A stretch of 64,000 nt of DNA, from positions 334,566 through 398,565 of the forward strand of contig CAZNZL010000001.1 in the NCBI GenBank assembly GCA_964577565.1, in the 5' to 3' direction. Position numbers and translations under genes: made by a program. The stretch's first letter is position 1. Every line of letters starts with the position of its first letter. Below, piece after piece: positions 5,319-62,995 of the stretch. Below the pieces are notes generated by a model. The model was not told the origin of the DNA. It saw only the letters and a program-made list of their open reading frames with translations, and ran no database searches. This DNA comes from an uncultured Candidatus Saccharibacteria bacterium (GTDB taxonomy: Bacteria; Patescibacteriota; Saccharimonadia; Saccharimonadales; JAGQNJ01).

Positions 5319-5987
5319 TTACAGCTCTGGCCCGGCCGGTCCCGAAGCGTGGTCGGAGGCCGTCGGAGTTCCTCTACCGGTTGGATCCGTAGCGAGCCCG
5401 ACGTGCCAGCGGCCGTCTTCGTCCTGTGATACGTCCAGTTCAGAGAGATCGAGACCACCATCTAGAAGACCCCGGAGCATCTCTCGACCGAGTCCGCGTT
5501 CTGCGGCCGACATGCCTATGTCGTGGGTATAGGACGCCTCGAAGCTGAGTACATCGCTCTGGTGTTGGGCTGGACGCGGTGCTGGTGTCCGACGCGCAGC
5601 GTGGCGCCTGCGAAGTGCTGCCGCTTGTGCTCGGTCGAAAGATTGCTGCCATTCGTCTGCGAACTGACGTACTTCATCACCGTCAAGCATGTCCACGAGA
5701 CGTTGGCCATGTCTCCAGTCGGGTGGTTCCTGTTCTGCCCGACGCTGAGCGCGAGCAGCCTGTCGTTCAGCAGCTACCTCGGCGACGTGTTCTGCGCCCA
5801 GAACCTGATCGACTCGTTTGCCAACAGGAACGATCGCCTGCTCCGCTTGGAGCGCAACTTCTCGTTCTCGCCTTCGTCGTAGGACCCGTTCAGGTTCATA
5901 GGAAGGACCCACACTCGGCAGATCTGACGAAGGTGCTCCCGGTTCACGTTCTCCTGTCATGGGCCACATTATGAGACTCGTTCTCAA
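5319..5987 (-). CDS. hypothetical protein (Arg/Ala/Glu-rich), third gene of the island operon
   Basis: 222-aa ORF co-directional with the two upstream genes, with a 26-nt gap. No motif recognised. The start is uncertain (MTGEREP is an alternative). Confidence 0.45.
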   Translation of the reverse strand: MRTSLIMWPMTGEREPGAPSSDLPSVGPSYEPERVLRRRREREVALQAEQAIVPVGKRVDQVLGAEHVAEVAAERQAARAQRRAEQEPPDWRHGQRLVDMLDGDEVRQFADEWQQSFDRAQAAALRRRHAARRTPAPRPAQHQSDVLSFEASYTHDIGMSAAERGLGREMLRGLLDGGLDLSELDVSQDEDGRWHVGLATDPTGRGTPTASDHASGPAGPEL

Positions 5988-6013
5988 TTCCCTCTAGTGT
6001 GGAATCGACAACG

Positions 6014-6376
6014 TCAGGCAGCTCGTTCGTCCCTGAGCTGCTCTCTGGCGAGGTCGACGAGGGCTCGAGCCAGAGTGGTGAGATCGGGTTCGTCGCGCTG
6101 GTAGGCGGTGACCTTGATGGTGGTCAGCTTCTTGGGGGAGCGAGAGTCTGGGATGGTCATCCGAACCCGGCTGCCACGAGCAACCCGTGGAGGATCTGCT
6201 CCGGGTGGTGGGCTTGGGTTGGTCAGCTCTTCGATGACCGTGAAGCGAAAGCTGGAGGGATCGACAGGGACGTAGGTTAGCTCTGCCGAGACGACAGTTG
6301 CTTCCTCAGTCCCGCGATCTTGCGGGGGGGGGGCGAGGTCATCGCCTGGGTTGGCGAAGAGGGAGAGCTGGGTCAC
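6014..6376 (-). CDS. hypothetical protein, second gene of the island operon; contains a C10 tract
   Basis: GTG start lies 15 nt after the stop of the 911-aa gene (MTQLSLFANPGDDLAPPPQ...). Third-position G/C bias supports the minus strand over the antisense ORF 5999..6280. Confidence 0.5.
   Translation of the reverse strand: MTQLSLFANPGDDLAPPPQDRGTEEATVVSAELTYVPVDPSSFRFTVIEELTNPSPPPGADPPRVARGSRVRMTIPDSRSPKKLTTIKVTAYQRDEPDLTTLARALVDLAREQLRDERAA
6324..6333 (-). repeat. homopolymer G10 (C10 in the coding sense)
   Basis: Counted directly as tgc+ggggggg+ggg. It encodes APPPQ inside CDS 6014..6376. Confidence 0.95.
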
Positions 6377-6391
6377 GGGAGCACCATGCGC

Positions 6392-9127
6392 CTACTTCTT
6401 GAACGAGGACTTAAGCTTCATAGTCCTTCGACTGAATGGAATCGGCCCACCTTCTAGGTGGTCGAGGGCCAACCGGTTGAGCTCGTGGCGTTCGAGCGAA
6501 CCTGATGCCTCGACCTCTCCATGACCAGCAGTCGCTTTCATTGTGACGATCTGCTCGGCATCTCCACTCACCACAATCCCAGGGCTTCGTGTTGCGAACA
6601 GATATTGCCGACTTCCCCGGAGGTCACGCAGACGGTCAACGAGGTACTCCTCAATCCAAGGGGCATGCAAGGCGTCTTCGGGTTGGTCGACTAGTACAGG
6701 CGTGTCCCCGTCAGCGAGCAGGATTACCAGGATGGCTGTGCAGCGTTGGCCATGAGCCAGCTCCTCTATCGCCGTGTACTGGTGATCGTCGGGCTTCTTG
6801 AACTTTATGGTGAGTACATCGGGGCGTTCGATAGTCTGCATCTCCAGGAGCTGCTCCCACATGTTCCGGTCGTCAATGTTGGCGAGAAGCTTCGCGACGC
6901 TGGTTGAGTCGATGCCGTGGGCTGTGTTAACGACTTCGTTGGGCGTCCCGAGCCAGAGGCTGCGTGAGAACTTGAGCGGACTAGTACGCAGCGCAAGTTG
7001 GTGAAGGAAGTCGTCCTTAACGCGTGATCCGACCTTGATCTCATCGAGTGCGTCACGGAAAGCCTTCGCGTCACCCTCATTGGGCACGTCCAGTTTGACA
7101 AACCCCGCAGCCTTTTCATTCAGCTGAAGCACGCGAGCCCGCCTCAGCTCCCGGCGCTCCTTGCGCGCTTCGTGGAGCACATCAATCATCTGTTCGCGTT
7201 GCTGTTCGAGTGTAGCTAGCGCAGGCTTAGCTTGCTCATCCAGCTCTTCCTTTGCGGCTTCGGCGTGGGTCAACTTCCCCTGGAGCTGTTCCAAACTGGC
7301 GCGTAAGGCGGTAAGCGAGGTTCCGTCGGGATCGACCTTCTCTAGCTCTTCGTCGAGCTTCGCCTTGAACTCAATGAACTTGGTAGACCATTGCTTCTCA
7401 ACCAGGCCGAGCTCGTCTGCCGCCTCGGTTAGACCCTTCTCGATAATCTCTAAGCCTTTGGCAACTTGCTCATCGAGCTTCGCAATGGCCTTGGAGGTTT
7501 GCCCAAACAGCTCCTTGTTCGACTCAACCTTGTGAGCGATCTCCGCGTTGGGCACCGCTAGCGTCGGAACTTCAAGTTGTTCGACACGTACTTTGACCTG
7601 CTGCAACGCCGTCTTCTCAGCTGCCCAGCTCGCCTGCTCTTTCACCGCGTCGGTCTTGAACACGTCACTAAGCTTCCGAACCTGCTCCTTAAGATCTGTC
7701 ACCCGTCCAGCATCGTCGGTCAGGCGAGAAACCCGATTACGAGCCGCAATCAACTTGGTGGCATTGGTTCGGAGCCCAGTTGTCGCTGCTGCGATTCGCT
7801 CGTTGATCTCGTCCAAGTCGAGCGCAGAATCGACCAGAGTCATACGGCCGACTGGCTCCCGCGAGTACTCGAGGATCTCGCCTTGCGAGAACGCTGCTAG
7901 AGGACACAGCACTGCCGGATCTACGTCTACGTCAGCCCAGTCTCCACTGGTCTGTTGAGAGACCTGTGCATTTGGGGATCCCGTGGGATCGAAAGTGCGC
8001 TCGATCTTGTAACGCTTGCCTTCGGCAACCAGAACAAGGCGAACAACACTCCCATTCATCAGTGCCTTTTCCATTCGCGAGTCAATCTCGTCACGTATGG
8101 CTGGGAATGAGTCGTGATCTACTTGCTGCTCAAGAGCGAACCGCACTGCCTCAAGGATCAACGACTTTCCCGTACCCGTGCCACCGAGAAGGCAGTTCAG
8201 GTCCGGCGAAAGGTCGATCTTTCCCCCGCCAAGGAACCCACCGATCAGCTCGACAGATTCGATCCGCGCATATGGCGGTGACAATGCTGGTTCTTCTAGA
8301 GTGATTCGCAAGGGAGGATCAGCCAGCGCATGGCGAACGCCTATCAGATCCGGCCGACTGGCCTTGATCCATGTCCGCCTCGCGCCGATGCCGGCAAGCG
8401 AGTGACAGCTGAGCGTTTCGTCCCATGTGTCGGATCCGCGCACGAAAGCCATCGTTCGCTCGTCAGCAATCTTGTTGTTGACATTGTCGATGGTGTCCAT
8501 GTGGACGACCTCGACCGCCGAAATCTGATCGCAAAGCAGAATCTTCTTTTGATGCGCCTTCACGCCAAGCTTTAAGAGACCCTTGGGCTTCTCGATATGG
8601 GCAGCAATAGCGATCCCACCTGCCTTGTCAACTTCAACGGCGGCTTGGGTGAACCCAACATCAGCCGCGATATCGAGCTTGCCTCGGTCCGCTTGTCCGA
8701 TGCCAAGGCGCACAAGCAACTCCTGGATCACCACTGGATCGACACCCTCTTCCCATATGGCGAGGAGGTGTCCTTCCGTAGTGCTGATCTCCACGCCTGG
8801 TAGGACAACTAGCGGACTTTCGGCAGCCGCATCGGCAATCCGCTTGCACCACGTTGCGGTGTTGTGGTCGGTGATCGCGATTGCATCTAGACCAGCGTCG
8901 ATCGCCGCCTGGACGATCTCCGCAGGAGTGCCATAGTGCTCCGGCTTGGCATCTTGCGATCCTGGGGTGTGCACATGGAAATCGACGGCCCAAAACCTTG
9001 CCCAGTCAGCTTTCACGATGCGCACCTTACATACTTCATCACACCCAATTATCACACTCTGCAGGCCCTCAGTCCGTTGCAGAATTCGCAACGCCGTCCG
9101 TCCGCAGCCACTTAGGCCAGCAGGCAA
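6392..9127 (-). CDS. PHP phosphoesterase domain fused to an SMC/Rad50/RecN-like coiled-coil ATPase (Ppl-like architecture)
   Basis: PHP motifs are WAVDFHVHTPGS, AIAITDHNT, GVEISTTEGH and AAHIEKP. Walker A LLGGTGTGKS lies at nt 8162-8185, followed by a long coiled-coil of about 270 aa. The C-terminus carries signature-like HGQR plus Walker B/D-loop VLVDQPEDALH. An alternative GTG start lies at 9025. Confidence 0.8.
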   Translation of the reverse strand: MPAGLSGCGRTALRILQRTEGLQSVIIGCDEVCKVRIVKADWARFWAVDFHVHTPGSQDAKPEHYGTPAEIVQAAIDAGLDAIAITDHNTATWCKRIADAAAESPLVVLPGVEISTTEGHLLAIWEEGVDPVVIQELLVRLGIGQADRGKLDIAADVGFTQAAVEVDKAGGIAIAAHIEKPKGLLKLGVKAHQKKILLCDQISAVEVVHMDTIDNVNNKIADERTMAFVRGSDTWDETLSCHSLAGIGARRTWIKASRPDLIGVRHALADPPLRITLEEPALSPPYARIESVELIGGFLGGGKIDLSPDLNCLLGGTGTGKSLILEAVRFALEQQVDHDSFPAIRDEIDSRMEKALMNGSVVRLVLVAEGKRYKIERTFDPTGSPNAQVSQQTSGDWADVDVDPAVLCPLAAFSQGEILEYSREPVGRMTLVDSALDLDEINERIAAATTGLRTNATKLIAARNRVSRLTDDAGRVTDLKEQVRKLSDVFKTDAVKEQASWAAEKTALQQVKVRVEQLEVPTLAVPNAEIAHKVESNKELFGQTSKAIAKLDEQVAKGLEIIEKGLTEAADELGLVEKQWSTKFIEFKAKLDEELEKVDPDGTSLTALRASLEQLQGKLTHAEAAKEELDEQAKPALATLEQQREQMIDVLHEARKERRELRRARVLQLNEKAAGFVKLDVPNEGDAKAFRDALDEIKVGSRVKDDFLHQLALRTSPLKFSRSLWLGTPNEVVNTAHGIDSTSVAKLLANIDDRNMWEQLLEMQTIERPDVLTIKFKKPDDHQYTAIEELAHGQRCTAILVILLADGDTPVLVDQPEDALHAPWIEEYLVDRLRDLRGSRQYLFATRSPGIVVSGDAEQIVTMKATAGHGEVEASGSLERHELNRLALDHLEGGPIPFSRRTMKLKSSFKK

Positions 9128-9200: not shown

Positions 9201-9276
9201 TGGTGCGGGTGACGAGACTCAAACTCGTGGCCTCTTCCTTGGCAAGGAAGCGCTCTATCAACTGAGCTACACCCGC
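9201..9276 (-). tRNA. tRNA-Gly (GCC)
   Basis: RC is gcgggtgtagctcagttgatagagcgcttccttGCCaaggaagaggccacgagtttgagtctcgtcacccgcacca. The cloverleaf folds by hand and CCA is encoded. Confidence 0.95.
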
Positions 9277-15659: not shown

Positions 15660-17249
15660 ATGTTCATGGTACTAGACGAAGAAATTGACCGTACTAAGTT
15701 ACGGTATGTGCTTTATGCTCGTAGGTCTACTACTGATGAAGGTAGTCAGGTTCGTTCTGTACCCGACCAAATCAAGTATTGCAAACGTCACGCCGAAATA
15801 GGGGGGCTAAACATAGTAGCTACGGTTAAGGAAAAAGGTTCAGCCAAGAAGCCAAATATAAAAATACGACCTAAATTTTACGAGTTACTTGATGAAATAG
15901 AGCACGGTGGTAAGTACGATGCTATTCTTTCGTATGCACCGGACAGACTCTCACGCAATATGCTGGACGGTGGTCGTATCATCAACCTACTGGATGAAGG
16001 AAAGATAAAAGACCTGCAATTTCCAACACATCACTTTACTAACGATCCATCTGGAAAACTCACGCTAGGTATCATGTTCTCTATATCTAAGCACTTTTCC
16101 GACGACCTATCTCAAAAGGTTCGTAGAGGGGTATCAGGAAACTGGGAAGAGGGTAAATCAGGGGGCCAACCTAAATGGGGCTATGACCGTGAACCAGATG
16201 GACGTTATCGTCCTAATGAGTGGTTTGATACTGTACAAGAAGCATGGTACATGAGAGCAAGAGGTGCAACAAACAAGATGGTGCTCGATTACTTGCTTGA
16301 GAAGGGCTACCACCGAATGACGAAAATCACGAGAAAGAATAAGAAAACAAAGAAGATACTGCCGACCGAAAAGAGTGTAGGAAATTTGTTCCGTGACCCA
16401 TTCTATTTCGGTATGCTTGAACAAACTCAACAAAATATAGACCTACGCACCGTACAATTAGACTTTGAGCCGATGATAGACGAGGAAATATATAACCAAG
16501 TCCAAGCTCTAGCTTATACTAGAAAGCGAGATATTGACCCCAAGAAAAGGACTGAATTCAAGCCCCTTAGACACTTAGTCTATTGTGGTGTTTGCAAGAG
16601 TGAAAAGTGTATGTCTGTAGGTAAGAATAAGCCAGGGGGTAGCAAACATCTTGTACTGTCATACGAGTGCAAAAACCCTGATTGTACTCGAAAACCTAAA
16701 TCCGTTAGAGCCAAGTTCATCTTTGACGGTATTTACGAGCTACTAGAGAAATTAGAGCTGTCAGACGAAGCGTACGAACGCTACAGCAAACGTATTGACA
16801 GCTTCACTGACGATAAGATTATCAAGATTAAACAAGAAATCTCTAGTAAGAGGGGTGCTTACGCACACAAGAAGAAAGAGCTTGATGAATTGTCGCTCGG
16901 ACTAGGCAAAATTAGCCGTAATTCGCCAGCTTATGTAATAAACGAGAGCAGGATTAACGAGCTGGCAATTGAAACTCAAGATTTAGAAGATGAGATAGAA
17001 AAGCGTAAAGCAAAAATTGCTAATCCGAGCAAAATAAAGCTGACCAAAGAGCAGTTCTTGAACCTCGTAAAATTAGCTCCTGACAAGATGAGAGCGGGTT
17101 CAGCAGTCGAAAAAGACCGTGTCGCACGGATATTATTCTTGAACCTAACCGTAGACAATGAAAAAAGGGTCTATCCTATCTGGAAAGAACCCTTTGCAAG
17201 CCTGGTAAAGGCCATTGAAATGTCGTCTGGTGCGGACGAAAGGACTTGA
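15660..17249 (+). CDS. large serine recombinase (integrase type)
   Basis: The N-terminal resolvase catalytic domain reads YVLYARRSTTDEGSQVRSVPDQ. A recombinase domain follows. Zinc ribbon CGVCKSEKC...YECKNPDC is followed by a C-terminal coiled-coil. Confidence 0.85.
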   Translation: MFMVLDEEIDRTKLRYVLYARRSTTDEGSQVRSVPDQIKYCKRHAEIGGLNIVATVKEKGSAKKPNIKIRPKFYELLDEIEHGGKYDAILSYAPDRLSRNMLDGGRIINLLDEGKIKDLQFPTHHFTNDPSGKLTLGIMFSISKHFSDDLSQKVRRGVSGNWEEGKSGGQPKWGYDREPDGRYRPNEWFDTVQEAWYMRARGATNKMVLDYLLEKGYHRMTKITRKNKKTKKILPTEKSVGNLFRDPFYFGMLEQTQQNIDLRTVQLDFEPMIDEEIYNQVQALAYTRKRDIDPKKRTEFKPLRHLVYCGVCKSEKCMSVGKNKPGGSKHLVLSYECKNPDCTRKPKSVRAKFIFDGIYELLEKLELSDEAYERYSKRIDSFTDDKIIKIKQEISSKRGAYAHKKKELDELSLGLGKISRNSPAYVINESRINELAIETQDLEDEIEKRKAKIANPSKIKLTKEQFLNLVKLAPDKMRAGSAVEKDRVARILFLNLTVDNEKRVYPIWKEPFASLVKAIEMSSGADERT

Positions 17250-17314
17250 ACCTTCACAGGATTGCTCCCACTGGCCCCTCAAGCCAGCGCGTCTACCAAT
17301 TCCGCCACGTCCGC
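17228..17314 (-). tRNA. tRNA-Leu (GAG)
   Basis: RC is gcggacgtggcggaattggtagacgcgctggcttGAGgggccagtgggagcaatcctgtgaaggttcaagtcctttcgtccgcacca. It has a long variable arm. Confidence 0.95.
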
Positions 17315-54820: not shown

Positions 54821-54991
54821 TATATTGCCCGCCTTTTTATACCCGCTTTAGTACTCATAGAACCCATTGTATGCAAAAGTCTCTGATTGGTAAAACTGTC
54901 ATGGTTATGACTAGATTTTTGAGTATAATTGCCGCTTAGGACTAGTGTTTTGTCCTTTAACAATCCGACCCAACCATTCCCTGGAGGCAAC

Positions 54992-55738
54992 ATGACCACT
55001 ATGACTCGAGAGCAAGCTCTCGAAGCCATCATCTGGAGCGCGGATGGCCTAACGCCGTCCGAGCTCTATGCAGTGCTGGACTTGATGCCAGACCTTCGGC
55101 GCGTCAAGCTCGATCGGCTGTTCGTGCGGAAGTACGGTGATGAGCCCATCGTGCACCTCACCGAGCGTGGCTACGACGTCTTCAACGACGCCAAGCTCAC
55201 CGAGGTGACCAGCAAGCTCATCGAGCTGGCAGAAGTCGAACTCGCAACCGATCCCTGGATGCTCAACTGCATGGCCGGTTCAACATCGACCGGCAAGCTG
55301 GAGCATCCCACTCCGCAGAAGGTCGACGCTCTCAAGCAGTTCGCCGATCTGTGCCACGAGACGGGAACGCTGCCGTGTGGCGTGACCGTCCTCACCACCA
55401 AGGAAGACGAGCACGTCGAAGGCGAGTTCAACGGACGACCGCCCATCGACCAGGTGCTGTGGTACGCCGATCTGATGATCAAGTGCGGCTTCACCGACAT
55501 GGTGTGTTCGCCCCAAGAAGCGCAGGCCATCGTCGACGAGTTCGGCTCCGCCATCAGCACCAACACTCCGGGCATCCGCCTGCCGGATTCACCGCCTGAC
55601 GACCAGGCGCGAACCAAGACGCCCGGCGAGGCGATCAAAGCCGGAGCAACCCGGCTCGTCATCGGTCGCCCCATCAGCAAGGGCAACCCAGCCGAGAACA
55701 TCGAGAAAATCGTCGCCGACATCCTGTCTGCGGCCTGA
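54992..55738 (+). CDS. orotidine-5'-phosphate decarboxylase-like protein
   Basis: GGAGG lies 4 nt before the ATG. IIWSAD, RVKLD, FNDAKLTEV (DxK), VTVLTT, MVCSPQEA, TPGIR, DQARTKTP and VIGRPI align to the PyrF landmarks. Confidence 0.75.
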   Translation: MTTMTREQALEAIIWSADGLTPSELYAVLDLMPDLRRVKLDRLFVRKYGDEPIVHLTERGYDVFNDAKLTEVTSKLIELAEVELATDPWMLNCMAGSTSTGKLEHPTPQKVDALKQFADLCHETGTLPCGVTVLTTKEDEHVEGEFNGRPPIDQVLWYADLMIKCGFTDMVCSPQEAQAIVDEFGSAISTNTPGIRLPDSPPDDQARTKTPGEAIKAGATRLVIGRPISKGNPAENIEKIVADILSAA

Positions 55739-55753
55739 CAACAAGGAGACCAA

Positions 55754-56422
55754 TTGTCACTCGACATTGCAAGTAGGCTCGAGGAGGCGGGTGCCGTCTA
55801 CACAGACAAGCACTTTGTCTACAAGAGCAAGAAGCACGGCAACGGCTACATCAACCCGGACCCGCTGTTCCCTGACATCGAGCTACTGTGGCAGCTCGGC
55901 GTGGAACTGTGGGGACCGTTCGCTGGCCGCTTCGACACGGTGGCTACCCCGGCAACGGGCGGCATCGCTTTGGCGTACGCCACGGCCTACACCCTCCGCT
56001 ACGAAGTGGATGTCGGCTCTGGCGGTCCCGCCACGGCGGTCGTCTGGGCTGACAAGGACGGAGACGACTTCGTCTTCGAGCGTGCCGGCTTCCTCGACCA
56101 GATCCGCGGCAAGCAGGTACTCGTCGTCGAGGATCTGCTCACAACCGGAGGTTCCGTCGCCAAGGTGGTCCACGAAGTGGAACGCAACGGCGGTGAGGTC
56201 ATCGGCGTCAGTGCGGTCTGCAACCGGGGCGGTGTCACAGCTGATGATCTCGGCGTCCACCAACTCGAGAGCCTCATGGCCGTCAGCTTCGAAGCGATAC
56301 CGCGTGAAGACTGTCCGCTGTGTGCCGACCAGGTCCCCATCGTCGAGGACATCGGACACGGCAGCGACTTCAAGTCCGAGAACCCCAACTACGAAGGAGG
56401 TTACATCAAGCTGCTGTCCTGA
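55754..56422 (+). CDS. orotate phosphoribosyltransferase-like type I PRTase
   Basis: AAGGAG precedes the TTG start. PRPP loop VLVVEDLLTTGGSV. The gene is adjacent to the pyrF-like gene. Confidence 0.7.
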   Translation: MSLDIASRLEEAGAVYTDKHFVYKSKKHGNGYINPDPLFPDIELLWQLGVELWGPFAGRFDTVATPATGGIALAYATAYTLRYEVDVGSGGPATAVVWADKDGDDFVFERAGFLDQIRGKQVLVVEDLLTTGGSVAKVVHEVERNGGEVIGVSAVCNRGGVTADDLGVHQLESLMAVSFEAIPREDCPLCADQVPIVEDIGHGSDFKSENPNYEGGYIKLLS

Positions 56423-56509
56423 AGAAGGCCATCAACACTCGTCCATTCATAGGGTCGCCGGTCCCCTATTTCCGAAAGGAGAAAATAGACCGGCACTACC
56501 AAGCAACTT

Positions 56510-56550
56510 TACTTAACATGTTAACTATTAACTTGTTAAGTATTTATACT
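56510..56550. repeat. 41-nt palindromic element, second copy
   Basis: tacttaacatgttaactattaacttgttaagtatttatact differs from 27584-27624 at 3 positions. Confidence 0.85.
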
Positions 56551-56711
56551 TTCGTGGCAAGGTGCCACAAATGGCAATATTTGCACTTATAACTATTTAG
56601 TTTTACGTTGCGCTGATGCTCAGCCACCAACGCAGCGGCATTCGCCTGCTCTTTAGTATCAAACGCTAACTTCTCTGAACACGGCAAGGTTTCTTCTTCC
56701 ATAAGTATCAT
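56544..56711 (-). CDS. 55-aa zinc-ribbon-like protein (not in ORF track)
   Basis: MILMEEETLPCSEKLAFDTKEQANAAALVAEHQRNVKLNSYKCKYCHLWHLATKV, with a C..(31)..CxxCxxWH pattern. Confidence 0.5.
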   Translation of the reverse strand: MILMEEETLPCSEKLAFDTKEQANAAALVAEHQRNVKLNSYKCKYCHLWHLATKV

Positions 56712-56918
56712 GGTAACATCTCTCTCATTGAATACTTTTTCGCTCGCTTGCTAACGCAAGCTATCCAGCGACCCACTTTTCTCAGTAGCAAGAAATAAGT
56801 CATCACTGCCCGCTGACACGGGCGGGATGAAAGAATTATGAGAATATCAGGGAGTAGGGTGCGTGTCGTTGGGTGATTTTAAAACCATAACTTAACAGAG
56901 ATGGCGTCTTGGTAAAGG

Positions 56919-57215
56919 TTAAGTTTCGAGTTTGGTGCCGGTTTTTTGAGCGATTTGATGCACCCAGCGGTCCAGTCGGGCAATTTGAGCATCCCGCGCC
57001 ACGCTATCGGTCTCAATATCATCAAGACGTTTTACAAACCCGTCAATCGTGTTGGTTAGCCTGTCTATACTTTGCCTAATGTCAGCAGTGTCAGTCCTGA
57101 CATCTTGAAATTCGTTATGAACATTTTGTGCAAAATTAGCCATAACGTCCGAAATATCTGTAACGGCTTTATCTACAATCTTTTGAACATCGTCTTTGGT
57201 TGCAACGTCTGCCAT
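56919..57215 (-). CDS. coiled-coil protein, unknown
   Basis: 98 aa, Asp/Ile/Gln-rich heptads. Confidence 0.55.
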   Translation of the reverse strand: MADVATKDDVQKIVDKAVTDISDVMANFAQNVHNEFQDVRTDTADIRQSIDRLTNTIDGFVKRLDDIETDSVARDAQIARLDRWVHQIAQKTGTKLET

Positions 57216-57343
57216 AGTGACTATATTTTATCACTCAGCACAACTCGTCACGCTGTATTACCCACAACATCTAGTTCAGACGAGAACTGGGTCAGATATA
57301 GCCCAGCCCCTCCTGGCTCCTGATGGATGCCTTGATGTGGCTT

Positions 57344-57478
57344 GGTTTGAACAAGGTCCTGTCAGCGTCAAAATAACAATACAAGTGAATGACTTGCCCG
57401 GCGTATAGCCGGGTGACTCGTTTACGATCATTGTCATGAACATTGTTATTTTGACAAGCTGATAGCAAGGTTCAAACC
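57344..57478. ncRNA. long imperfect hairpin, candidate structured RNA or MITE-like element; strand unknown
   Basis: Outer arms ggtttgaac (57344-52) / gttcaaacc (57470-78). A perfect 14-bp inner stem gtcaaaataacaat (57367-80) / attgttattttgac (57442-55) encloses the gcccggc-gtata-gccgggt hairpin. Confidence 0.35.
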
Positions 57479-57661
57479 ATTGCCACGAGGGGTTTTGCCT
57501 CCTTTTGACCCAGATGCAAAAGGAGGTCGCCTACAGCTCACGGAGTGAGCGGGCGAAAGAATAAGTATTCACAAAACTTGTCCGGCCGGACACAAAATGA
57601 GAATAATTATTACCGAGACAAAAGATAACAAGGATATTCGAGTTCTTTGCAGAAAGAACGT

Positions 57662-57982
57662 TTAACTAGCCAATTCTTCTACCAAATGGTCTATGGTTGT
57701 TTTGTATAGATGCTTTTGGCGGCTTGTTAGCCCTAAAACTTCGCCACCATACACCCGTATTCCGCCTAAACCGTCCGGGTTATAAACTCTCTCGATGTCC
57801 CCGCATTCTTGCCGTACCGCACAACCCGCACAGACACGCAAGGCAGCGTTCATTTGTTCTTGGTTGTCTGCTGTTTTACCCCTCCCTACTTCTAAAGTGG
57901 GATGAAATATATTAGGATCCATGCCTGCACAGGCATTTACAGCCAATTCTATGCTGATTTTCTCCTCTGCTTCAACGGCCAT
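57662..57982 (-). CDS. WhiB-like (Wbl-like) Cys4 protein, divergent
   Basis: NACAG...(32 aa)...CAGCAVRQEC...GIRVYGG: the CxxCx5C core and a GxxxxGG turn, with a longer first spacer than in canonical Wbl. Confidence 0.6.
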   Translation of the reverse strand: MAVEAEEKISIELAVNACAGMDPNIFHPTLEVGRGKTADNQEQMNAALRVCAGCAVRQECGDIERVYNPDGLGGIRVYGGEVLGLTSRQKHLYKTTIDHLVEELAS

Positions 57983-62590: not shown

Positions 62591-62995
62591 GGGGCTGACT
62601 TTAAGCTCGACGTAGGACTTTATCGGTTAGATCAGCAGGTCGCGTACTAAGCGTTATATGGTAAAACTTTTTAACTGCAACAGTTAAAGAACGCGTAGCA
62701 AACGCACTGAACAGCCTTGCGGCTGCTTTTCGTGCGCCAGCTATCGCAACAGCTGTAGCTTAATTTGCTTCAGCCGTACCTAGTGTGACGCCAGATAGCT
62801 CTAGCGTGCGCCATATTTTCTGGATGCGTACTGCTTACTATCCATAGGCAGTATTAAGCCTTTAGGATTGCGAAGTTTGGTTATTTTGTCTGTTTTTCAG
62901 GCCAAGCTTCAAAGATAGCAAAAACAGACTAAACCTGTAGACGACTAACCAAGATAAACTTGCGGACGCGGGGGCAGTACCCGCCAGCTCCACCA
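62591..62995 (+). ncRNA. ssrA: tmRNA (SsrA)
   Basis: 5' GGGGCTGAC..CTCGACG and 3' GGACGCGGGGGCAGTACCCGCCAGCTCCACCA form a 7-bp acceptor stem with G3:U70. The internal tag frame is GCA AAC GCA CTG ... GCT GTA GCT TAA (ANALNSLAAAFRAPAIATAVA). Confidence 0.85.

Follow-up and report, generated by a model that had tools for sequence, protein, structure and literature searches.

We analysed a stretch of 64,000 nucleotides (the window) from a contig of an uncultured Candidatus Saccharibacteria bacterium (GenBank assembly GCA_964577565.1, contig CAZNZL010000001.1, positions 334,566 to 398,565 of the forward strand), focusing on two adjacent GC-rich genes whose products resemble orotidine 5'-monophosphate (OMP) decarboxylase (OMPDC; PyrF) and orotate phosphoribosyltransferase (OPRT; PyrE). 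An earlier annotation made from the sequence alone (the original prediction) had viewed the two genes as a pair dropped in behind an AT-rich native region.

The pyrF-pyrE gene pair and its composition

The pyrF-like gene (54992-55738, + strand) starts with ATG and encodes 248 amino acids (aa), with a GGAGG ribosome-binding site (RBS) at 54983-54987, four bases upstream; the pyrE-like gene (55754-56422, + strand) starts with TTG and encodes 222 aa, with an AAGGAG RBS at 55743-55748, five bases upstream. They share the same orientation and are separated by a spacer of 15 nucleotides (nt), and their start codons are those of the 100% identical database proteins P0001 and P0121. Almost all other genes around the pair lie on the - strand. 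The divergent intergenic region between the NUDIX gene (-) and pyrF (+), at 54821-54991, is native-like in composition (~44% GC) and 83-86% identical to that of L001, a 127-kb contig of an uncultured Candidatus Saccharibacteria metagenome-assembled genome (MAG; GCA_964426755.1) that carries the closest relative of both proteins (PyrF ~75%, PyrE 66-68% identity). The TATAAT element reported earlier is present in this region at 54924-54929, while a full promoter is not supported, as a sigma-70 scan of the + strand ahead of pyrF gave no complete match with both -35 and -10 elements.

Downstream, two hairpins occupy the convergent gap (56457-56542) between pyrE (+) and a 55-aa open reading frame (ORF) on the - strand; the first (56457-56494) has a GC-rich stem, and the second (56510-56542) is an AT-rich palindrome. 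The region has a predicted RNA fold of -34.8 kcal/mol (z = -4.25) and was also picked up as an inverted repeat, and the two hairpins are probable terminators closing a two-gene operon. The convergent 55-aa ORF (56544-56711, -) ends in a C-terminal YKCKYCHLWHLATK (CxxC) motif and adjoins the pair also in L001, L023 and L059; it matches no Pfam family, with only a weak DUF2024 match (E = 0.095). As originally noted, other pyrimidine genes are not found nearby: Pfam scans of 30 other ORFs of at least 200 aa in the window and of the six nearest ORFs, with ORFs below 200 aa mostly unscanned, revealed no further pyr gene, and the gene annotation of the syntenic L001 likewise shows none.

The pair has a GC content of 61.7%, in line with the earlier estimate of about 60%, against 46-47% in its flanks, which are therefore moderate in composition (~46% GC) rather than AT-rich. 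The excess resides mainly in third codon positions (GC3 of 0.80 in pyrF and 0.78 in pyrE versus 0.47 in neighbouring genes), and GC content steps up at the pyrF start codon and down at the pyrE stop codon. Codons in the pair are C-ending and actinobacterial-looking (C3 50%, ATC 92%, TTC 93%, AAC 100%, AAG 91%, GTC 68%, CTC 49%), whereas host genes in the window prefer ATT (67%), TTT (86%) and AAA (64%). Codon usage of Patescibacteria is complementary to that of their GC-rich hosts (Katayama et al., 2026, bioRxiv 10.64898/2026.06.21.733656), which makes a host-like cassette in an epibiont conspicuous.

Two enzymes and their probable function

The landmark motifs of OMPDC and of a type I phosphoribosyltransferase (PRTase) were all found where the original prediction had located them, and Pfam confirmed both family assignments. 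The PyrF-like protein matched OMPdecase (PF00215) with 54.4 bits (gathering cutoff 27) over profile positions 6-221 of 221. Its motifs, all encoded on the + strand, are WSAD (55034-55045), the catalytic loop DAKLTE (55187-55204; D66, K68 and E71), VTVLTT (55382-55399), TPGIR (55565-55579), DQAR (55601-55612) and VIGRPI (55658-55675). A phmmer search against the PDB retrieved only OMP decarboxylases (V. cholerae 3LDV, E = 3e-20; E. coli 1EIX, E = 3e-19), and in the alignment FNDAKLTEVTSK pairs with FLDLKFHDIPNT, so that D66, K68 and E71 of DAKLTE correspond to D71, K73 and D76 of DLKFHD in E. coli. Canonical positions for OMP binding and catalysis are present, namely D18 (in WSAD), K39, D66, K68, T136 (in VTVLTT), Q205 (in DQAR) and G225-R226, the sole exception being the change of D to E at 71; position 136 is Thr here and Ser in over 95% of the family. 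The AlphaFold2 (AF2) model of the protein, with a mean predicted local distance difference test score (pLDDT) of 90.6, matched OMPDC structures with template modelling (TM) scores of 0.79-0.86, and the top 50 Foldseek matches in the PDB were all OMPDC chains, including a few entries titled otherwise in which the molecule is named OMPDC. Neither KGPDC nor hexulose-phosphate synthase (HPS) families were retrieved in NCBIfam, phmmer or fold searches.

Compared with bacterial type 1 PyrF (E. coli 1EIX, V. cholerae 3LDV, K. pneumoniae 8CSO), to which it is ~26-28% identical over the full length, the protein has the same (beta/alpha)8 barrel, N-terminal Asp, first Lys, D-x-K, VLT[ST], PGIR, DQxR and GR phosphate gripper, and its gene likewise adjoins an OPRT gene. 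It differs in a Glu at the fourth position of the catalytic network, in an (I/V)P-x-K segment, in the additional WSAD motif and in reaching only about half of the equivalog cutoffs. The catalytic network of OMPDC is Lys-Asp-Lys-Asp (K42, D70, K72 and D75' in M. thermautotrophicus numbering) and, to our knowledge, has been treated as invariant. The deviation at DAKLTE that had been singled out earlier is thus real in that Glu occupies the motif, but other copies share it: D to E at this position, WSAD and (I/V)P-x-K occur in all of the top 120 homologues from the database and in practically all sequences derived from the loci, the canonical DxKxxD-IPNT being replaced by DxKxxE-(I/V)P-x-K across the subfamily (VTSK in the window copy). 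A hidden Markov model (HMM) search of 1.84 billion representative sequences yielded 7,724 family members, just 64 of them at E <= 1e-30; the DxKxxE/WSAD signature spans roughly ranks 1 to 48, and ranks 65-150 carry the canonical DxKxxD-IPNT. Its limitation to the top ranks delineates a small, distinct and uncharacterised OMPDC subfamily, with some 50-64 members among the ~7,700 family representatives. Since D to E is conservative, the change argues for a variant of OMPDC and would not point away from its chemistry.

The PyrE-like protein matched Pribosyltran (PF00156) with 42.5 bits (cutoff 26.3) and has the loop VLVVEDLLTTGGS (residues 122-134; 56117-56155, +), which in type I PRTases binds 5-phosphoribosyl 1-pyrophosphate (PRPP). 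Its best model was TIGR01367 (pyrE_Therm), with 98.8 bits over the full length (positions 2-183 of 187). OPRT models cover residues 5-198, whereas those for apt, hpt, upp and prs cover only residues ~113-173 with at most 35 bits. Structural matches to its AF2 model (pLDDT 88.9) were led by H. pylori HP1257 (4PAW, deposited as an OPRT; TM 0.67-0.77), followed by yeast, M. tuberculosis, human and other OPRTs. With this Thermus-type OPRT group (TIGR01367; HP1257) it shares the PRPP loop and an N-terminal HF..S..H...Y motif, and departs from it in an insertion at residues 81-95 (RYEVDVGSGGPATAV), a family-specific WADK...FxFERAGF loop and a C-terminal CxxC...PIVxDxGHG tail. Across 73 conserved columns of its family it shows no deviation.

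Among relatives, the subfamily pyrF adjoins three OPRT lineages. In an animal-associated clade its partner is a canonical pyrE (TIGR00336, 152.5 bits, above the 106.8 cutoff); in the clade with the same gene order as the window, the OPRT is Thermus-type in the window, L001, L029, L057 and L059, PRK13809-like in L023 and L060, and a weak Thermus-like form in L016, and all these OPRT genes are GC-rich. Across all loci a PRTase gene is the sole widely conserved neighbour of pyrF, the context varying otherwise. Moreover, the subfamily pyrF lies directly downstream of pyrD in L009 and L013, and of pyrD-pyrC in L017 and L019.

Given these partnerships with canonical pyrE and with pyrD or pyrD-pyrC in relatives, from which we infer both the enzymatic activities and orotate as the physiological substrate, the pair probably converts orotate via OMP to uridine 5'-monophosphate (UMP). 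The PyrE-like protein would form OMP from orotate and PRPP, and the PyrF-like protein would decarboxylate OMP to UMP, so that the conversion proposed originally for a reduced-genome organism stands as the best functional reading. As no other pyr gene was found among the ORFs scanned in the 64 kb, the pair most likely would serve in orotate salvage or be what is left of a pyrD-pyrC-pyrF-pyrE cluster that some relatives have kept.

Several observations weigh against this assignment. Both proteins score below the NCBIfam equivalog cutoffs (PyrF-like: NF001273, 104.4 vs 193 bits, and TIGR01740, 56 vs 92.3; PyrE-like: TIGR01367, 98.8 vs 150.25, and TIGR00336, 48.8 vs 106.8), a shortfall that for OMPDC models is common to the PyrF of L055, L036 and L057; the fourth residue of the Lys-Asp-Lys-Asp network is Glu, which leaves the network incomplete; and the Thr of canonical IPNT is replaced by Lys throughout the subfamily. 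Five of the 65 highly conserved PyrF columns (>=93%) are altered in the window copy (P73T, S136T, L162M, R181V and T229S), which could reflect relaxed constraint, and the Arg of DQxR is lost in PyrF of the syntenic relatives L057 and L059.

The below-cutoff scores and the remodelled DxKxxE..K catalytic loop would also fit a repurposed pair, in which the OMPDC-like and PRTase-like proteins act on another substrate in a nucleotide-modifying or natural-product-type module, as do the copies that stand alone in non-pyr contexts in large Actinomycetota genomes, presumably endowed with the canonical pathway. Such a module, raised as the alternative in the original prediction, is most improbable given that the OMP-contacting residues are all retained, that the subfamily is partnered with bona fide pyrE and set in pyrD-pyrC-pyrF-pyrE clusters, and that NCBIfam and fold searches yielded OMPDCs and OPRTs only, with no KGPDC or HPS members.

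The altered columns could alternatively mark the window copy as a decaying relic, under relaxed selection and heading for loss. Its PyrF ranks 4 of 120 in deviations at conserved columns, among them the pyrimidine-binding Ser to Thr and a loop Pro to Thr, and evolves faster than the flanking genes; the conserved Arg is, as mentioned, gone in L057 and L059. We find a relic very doubtful, since both frames are intact with good RBSs, PyrE keeps all of its conserved columns, the PyrF substitutions are conservative, and the ratio of nonsynonymous to synonymous substitution rates (dN/dS) between the window and L001 (0.10-0.37 for PyrF and 0.18-0.28 for PyrE) indicates purifying selection, the values for PyrF implying a constraint that is weakened yet still there.

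PyrF evolution is very uneven in the clade of L057 and L059. The PyrF proteins encoded there (L057 9234-9986; L059 5287-6090) are just 44-49% identical to that of the window, and the adjoining PyrE 72-77%. They have DQVN for the family-invariant DQAR, together with VNAGIR/NTPGVR variants, and PyrF of L059 has a run of N within the catalytic loop.

The enzymes thus assigned can be set beside what is known of the phylum. Most Saccharibacteria lack complete nucleotide synthesis, and some keep many pyrimidine enzymes or full pathways (PMC7786006; bioRxiv 10.64898/2026.09.16.751625); nucleotide-biosynthesis genes, including that for OMPDC, are phylogenetically scattered (bioRxiv 10.64898/2026.06.21.733656). 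None of the papers in the library searched mentioned both Saccharibacteria and orotate, and a search on pyrE/pyrF gave nothing relevant. Elsewhere, some lactobacilli require or use orotate, and orotate-related genes have been reported for Mycoplasma penetrans. Like organisms with stand-alone pyrE/pyrF, the window has the two terminal enzymes without pyrB, pyrC or pyrD nearby, as far as the 64 kb extend, in a reduced, host-dependent genome; unlike them, it has a lineage-specific enzyme subfamily and a lasting compositional anomaly.

Probable long residence, recombination and the GC excess

A pattern scan for the PyrF subfamily in one genome per GTDB species gave 48 loci, 42 of them labelled Saccharibacteria, Saccharimonadia, Saccharimonadales, Nanosyncoccus, Microsaccharimonas, Saccharimonas or Patescibacteria, the remaining ones being labelled Nomurabacteria (1), unclassified (2), Solirubrobacterales or Actinomycetota (3) and Mycobacteriales (1). 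In a neighbour-joining PyrF tree with 200 bootstraps, the Solirubrobacterales-type copies, including that on the 5.3-Mb contig L055, formed one shallow clade (199/200), and this Actinomycetota clade was nested within one Saccharimonadia subclade (155/200). The labels and the nesting indicate that the PyrF family is lineage-typical for Saccharimonadia, to which the subfamily with DxKxxE/WSAD is almost confined. Actinobacteria seem to have received their copies, or at most to have exchanged them locally, and do not look like the source of the family. The proposal of a pair dropped in from elsewhere is not supported, as the two proteins of the window cluster with orthologs typical of their own lineage.

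Saccharimonadia-type pyrF-pyrE pairs occur in unrelated contexts in the Actinomycetota MAGs L004/L015, L018, L020, L055 and L013/L056 (Solirubrobacterales-like or Mycobacteriales-labelled), at a native ~70% or 61% GC and, in L013, in the order pyrD-pyrF-pyrE. They are presumably extras beside a canonical pathway. Actinomycetota is the phylum of the known Saccharibacteria hosts, and these copies suggest gene exchange between Saccharibacteria and the host phylum on at least two occasions. The PyrF subfamily was absent from the viral contigs scanned, which thus gave no sign of a phage vector.

Gene order around the pair is the same in the window and L001 (AlaRS...MnmA...aminotransferase-TatD-MetRS-NUDIX-[pyrF-pyrE]-small ORF-WhiB-like-trehalase), and the MetRS(/NUDIX)...pair...trehalase locus is found in at least eight genomes (the window, L001, L016, L023, L029, L057/58, L059 and L060). 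Within this set, identities range from 84% to 65% for MetRS, from 89% to 63% for trehalase and from 77% to 47% for PyrF, and those of PyrF group the genomes as MetRS does, into (window, L001), (L016, L023) and L029. Four-fold degenerate sites of PyrF between the window and L016, L023 or L029 are saturated like those of MetRS, with an excess of identity over the composition-based expectation of -0.01 to +0.13. The pair has therefore very probably resided at this locus for long rather than being a recent insertion, and its arrival would predate the divergence of a family-level group of genomes.

The competing view is that the pair was acquired recently, with an actinobacterial host or another high-GC organism as donor, and is not yet ameliorated. 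Its codon usage does look foreign and actinobacterial, it runs opposite to nearly all genes around it, Actinomycetota genomes have homologous pairs (one of them on the 5.3-Mb contig), and a second GC-rich island in the window, with a Ppl gene beside a tRNA-Gly gene, shows that this genome takes up GC-rich DNA. The sharp break in GC content and codon usage and the opposite orientation are also what a classical genomic island would show. The pair differs from such an island in its conserved position across deeply diverged relatives, in its steady composition and in its borders: a repeat search found no direct or inverted repeats bracketing it, its flanks hold no integrase or other mobility gene, and no tRNA gene lies within 35 kb of it. 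With the locus occupied, and the pair GC-rich, in at least eight genomes whose MetRS are 65-84% identical, and with the synonymous sites of the pair saturated between the deeper ones, recent acquisition is improbable. It is further opposed by the best Actinomycetota matches to the two proteins being only 50-58% identical, by the well-supported monophyly and nested position of the Actinomycetota clade, and by a GC step that falls exactly at the coding sequences and leaves the upstream region native-like and conserved.

In the syntenic genomes the pair has 58-63% GC in flanks of 42-51%, and PyrF a GC3 of 0.70-0.93 versus 0.44-0.56 in neighbouring genes. Over a wider set, the PyrF GC3 excess exceeded 0.15 in 17 of 49 loci and was about zero in the animal-associated clade, so high GC content is not intrinsic to the enzyme family. 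In the pyrD-pyrC-containing cluster of L017, GC3 is native in pyrD and pyrC (0.36-0.38) and raised in pyrF (0.59) and pyrE (0.47). At the other extreme, PyrF of L029 (8001-8732) has a GC3 of 0.93, with 0.54 in neighbouring genes, which tops the neighbour GC3 of every sampled Saccharimonadia locus (highest average, 0.67).

We polarised four-fold changes in the pair on the branches to the window and L001, using L060 as outgroup, and counted 6 strong-to-weak and 8 weak-to-strong changes, whereas decay from a GC content of 78% at four-fold sites (GC4) under a roughly symmetric genome bias would give ~78% strong-to-weak (binomial p = 0.0045). This balance, too, speaks against recent acquisition. 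Had the pair been imported just once, in an ancestor, and ameliorated neutrally from then on, no GC3 excess of +0.2 to +0.4 could have outlasted the complete synonymous turnover. These data point to a pair whose composition is at steady state, its GC-richness being maintained or renewed and not decaying.

Three other candidate causes of the excess were rejected. Head-on orientation fails in L003, where the pair is co-oriented with its neighbours and still has a GC3 excess of +0.35; translational optimisation fails as ribosomal-protein genes of the window lack the preferences of the pair for AAG, CTC, GTC and CCC; and amino-acid composition fails as the excess is mainly in GC3.

Evidence of recombination came from sliding-window nucleotide identity between the window and L001 over 7.7 kb, with segments checked by blastn. 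Identity was 70-87% overall. Within the pair it was 68-79% in pyrE and 71-83% up to two thirds of the way into pyrF, and rose to 91-96% in a patch at 55471-55770 (+) that takes in the last third of pyrF, the spacer and the initial pyrE codons. By blastn, this footprint was 92.8% identical to L001 over 279 nt, compared with 75% for the adjoining 5' part of pyrF and 73% for pyrE; it is also the most GC-rich part of the pair. Protein identities are similarly mosaic. PyrE of the window is closer to those of L059 (77%) and L057 (72%) than to that of L001 (68%), and MetRS shows the reverse (L001, 84%; L059, 74%); relative to L060, the window and L001 are 69-73% identical in PyrF and 62% in NUDIX, the order being reversed between the window and L001 (76% and 87%, respectively). 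The pyrF-pyrE unit thus appears to behave as an exchangeable cassette with its own composition, and the lack of mobility genes, tRNA genes and border repeats makes homologous or homology-facilitated recombination the likely route.

What maintains the GC excess we infer with more caution. The GC-rich state may be kept by repeated recombination with, or replacement by, GC-rich homologues of other Saccharimonadia and occasionally of Actinomycetota, and GC-biased gene conversion may add to it; residual, un-ameliorated foreign DNA would not be the explanation. Recombination or replacement is a cause that we put forward tentatively, with selection for host-like codons as a less likely alternative to recurrent recombination. 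Three points count against our account of residence and renewal: the polarised-substitution test is based on only 14 changes, the PyrF tree was built by neighbour joining and has moderate support, and the search for a GC-rich donor yielded none above ~55% protein identity.

Instead, the pair could be inherited vertically and hold its GC-rich codons through a force specific to the locus. This force might be codon selection, linked for instance to low or conditional expression where the other genes of the genome complement the codon usage of GC-rich hosts, or GC-biased gene conversion, with the locus as a recombination hot spot. Either would account for a steady composition despite saturated synonymous sites, for the balanced polarised changes and for a GC excess confined to coding sequences; the locus does recombine, with the patch as its most GC-rich part, and in L017 only pyrF and pyrE are raised while pyrD and pyrC have native GC3. 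The reported complementarity between codon usage of Patescibacteria and GC-rich hosts (bioRxiv 10.64898/2026.06.21.733656) also agrees with the codon-selection form. The same family has, however, equilibrated to its genome (GC3 excess ~0) in the animal-associated clade and several other genomes. We know of no precedent for GC-biased conversion of such strength at a single locus, which counts further against a force of this kind, and on balance it seems somewhat unlikely. As a whole, an explanation that combines an orotate-to-UMP pair, long residence and a GC content kept by recombination is moderately likely.

A bolder version, which we regard as quite unlikely, is that the cassette is actively kept host-like (GC-rich and C-ending) in epibionts whose other genes complement the codons of GC-rich hosts, either by repeated 'ping-pong' between Saccharimonadia and their Actinomycetota hosts, each passage resetting its composition, or by selection or GC-biased conversion that couples its expression to host contact. 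If true, one metabolic locus would be a long-lived hot spot of recombination and exchange between parasite and host lineages.

Other features of the window and wider significance

The second GC-rich island, at 5319-9127, has 57-64% GC, with TTC at 85% and AAG at 88%, and lies directly beside a tRNA-Gly gene (9201-9276). Its 911-aa protein with PHP and AAA ATPase domains matched the PADLOC model for Ppl anti-phage defence (171 bits, E = 8e-51), and two upstream ORFs (120 and 222 aa) matched no family. Overall it resembles a classical integrated defence island. A 529-aa serine recombinase (Resolvase and Recombinase domains; 15660-17314), encoded by one of the few + strand genes of the window, ends in or against a tRNA-Leu(GAG) gene (17228-17314) and may be the remnant or border of an integrated element.

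Closer to the pair, a segment of ~840 bp at 56729-57571 is missing from L001. Imperfect inverted repeats of 27 nt (78% complementary) flank this segment, and their arm has one other copy in the window (its partner). The segment encodes a 98-aa coiled-coil ORF (56919-57215, -). A WhiB-like protein (57662-57982, -; Pfam Whib, 26.8 bits, cutoff 23.6), of a family typical of Actinobacteria, is encoded next to the trehalase gene. Near its end the window has a tmRNA gene (62591-62995, +; Rfam RF00023, 80 bits).

As to what the pair means for these organisms, its function adds little, partial pyrimidine pathways being already known in Saccharibacteria (PMC7786006; bioRxiv 10.64898/2026.09.16.751625). 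Its PyrF belongs, however, to a whole natural OMPDC subfamily with Glu at the fourth position of the network and a neighbouring Lys, and this makes an easy target for enzymology. The pair also illustrates that a sharp island of GC content and codon usage need not signal recent transfer, since here the anomaly predates the divergence of a family-level clade. This bears on calls of horizontal transfer based on composition in Patescibacteria, and on the hypothesis, now current, that codon usage in this group has been shaped against host RNA.

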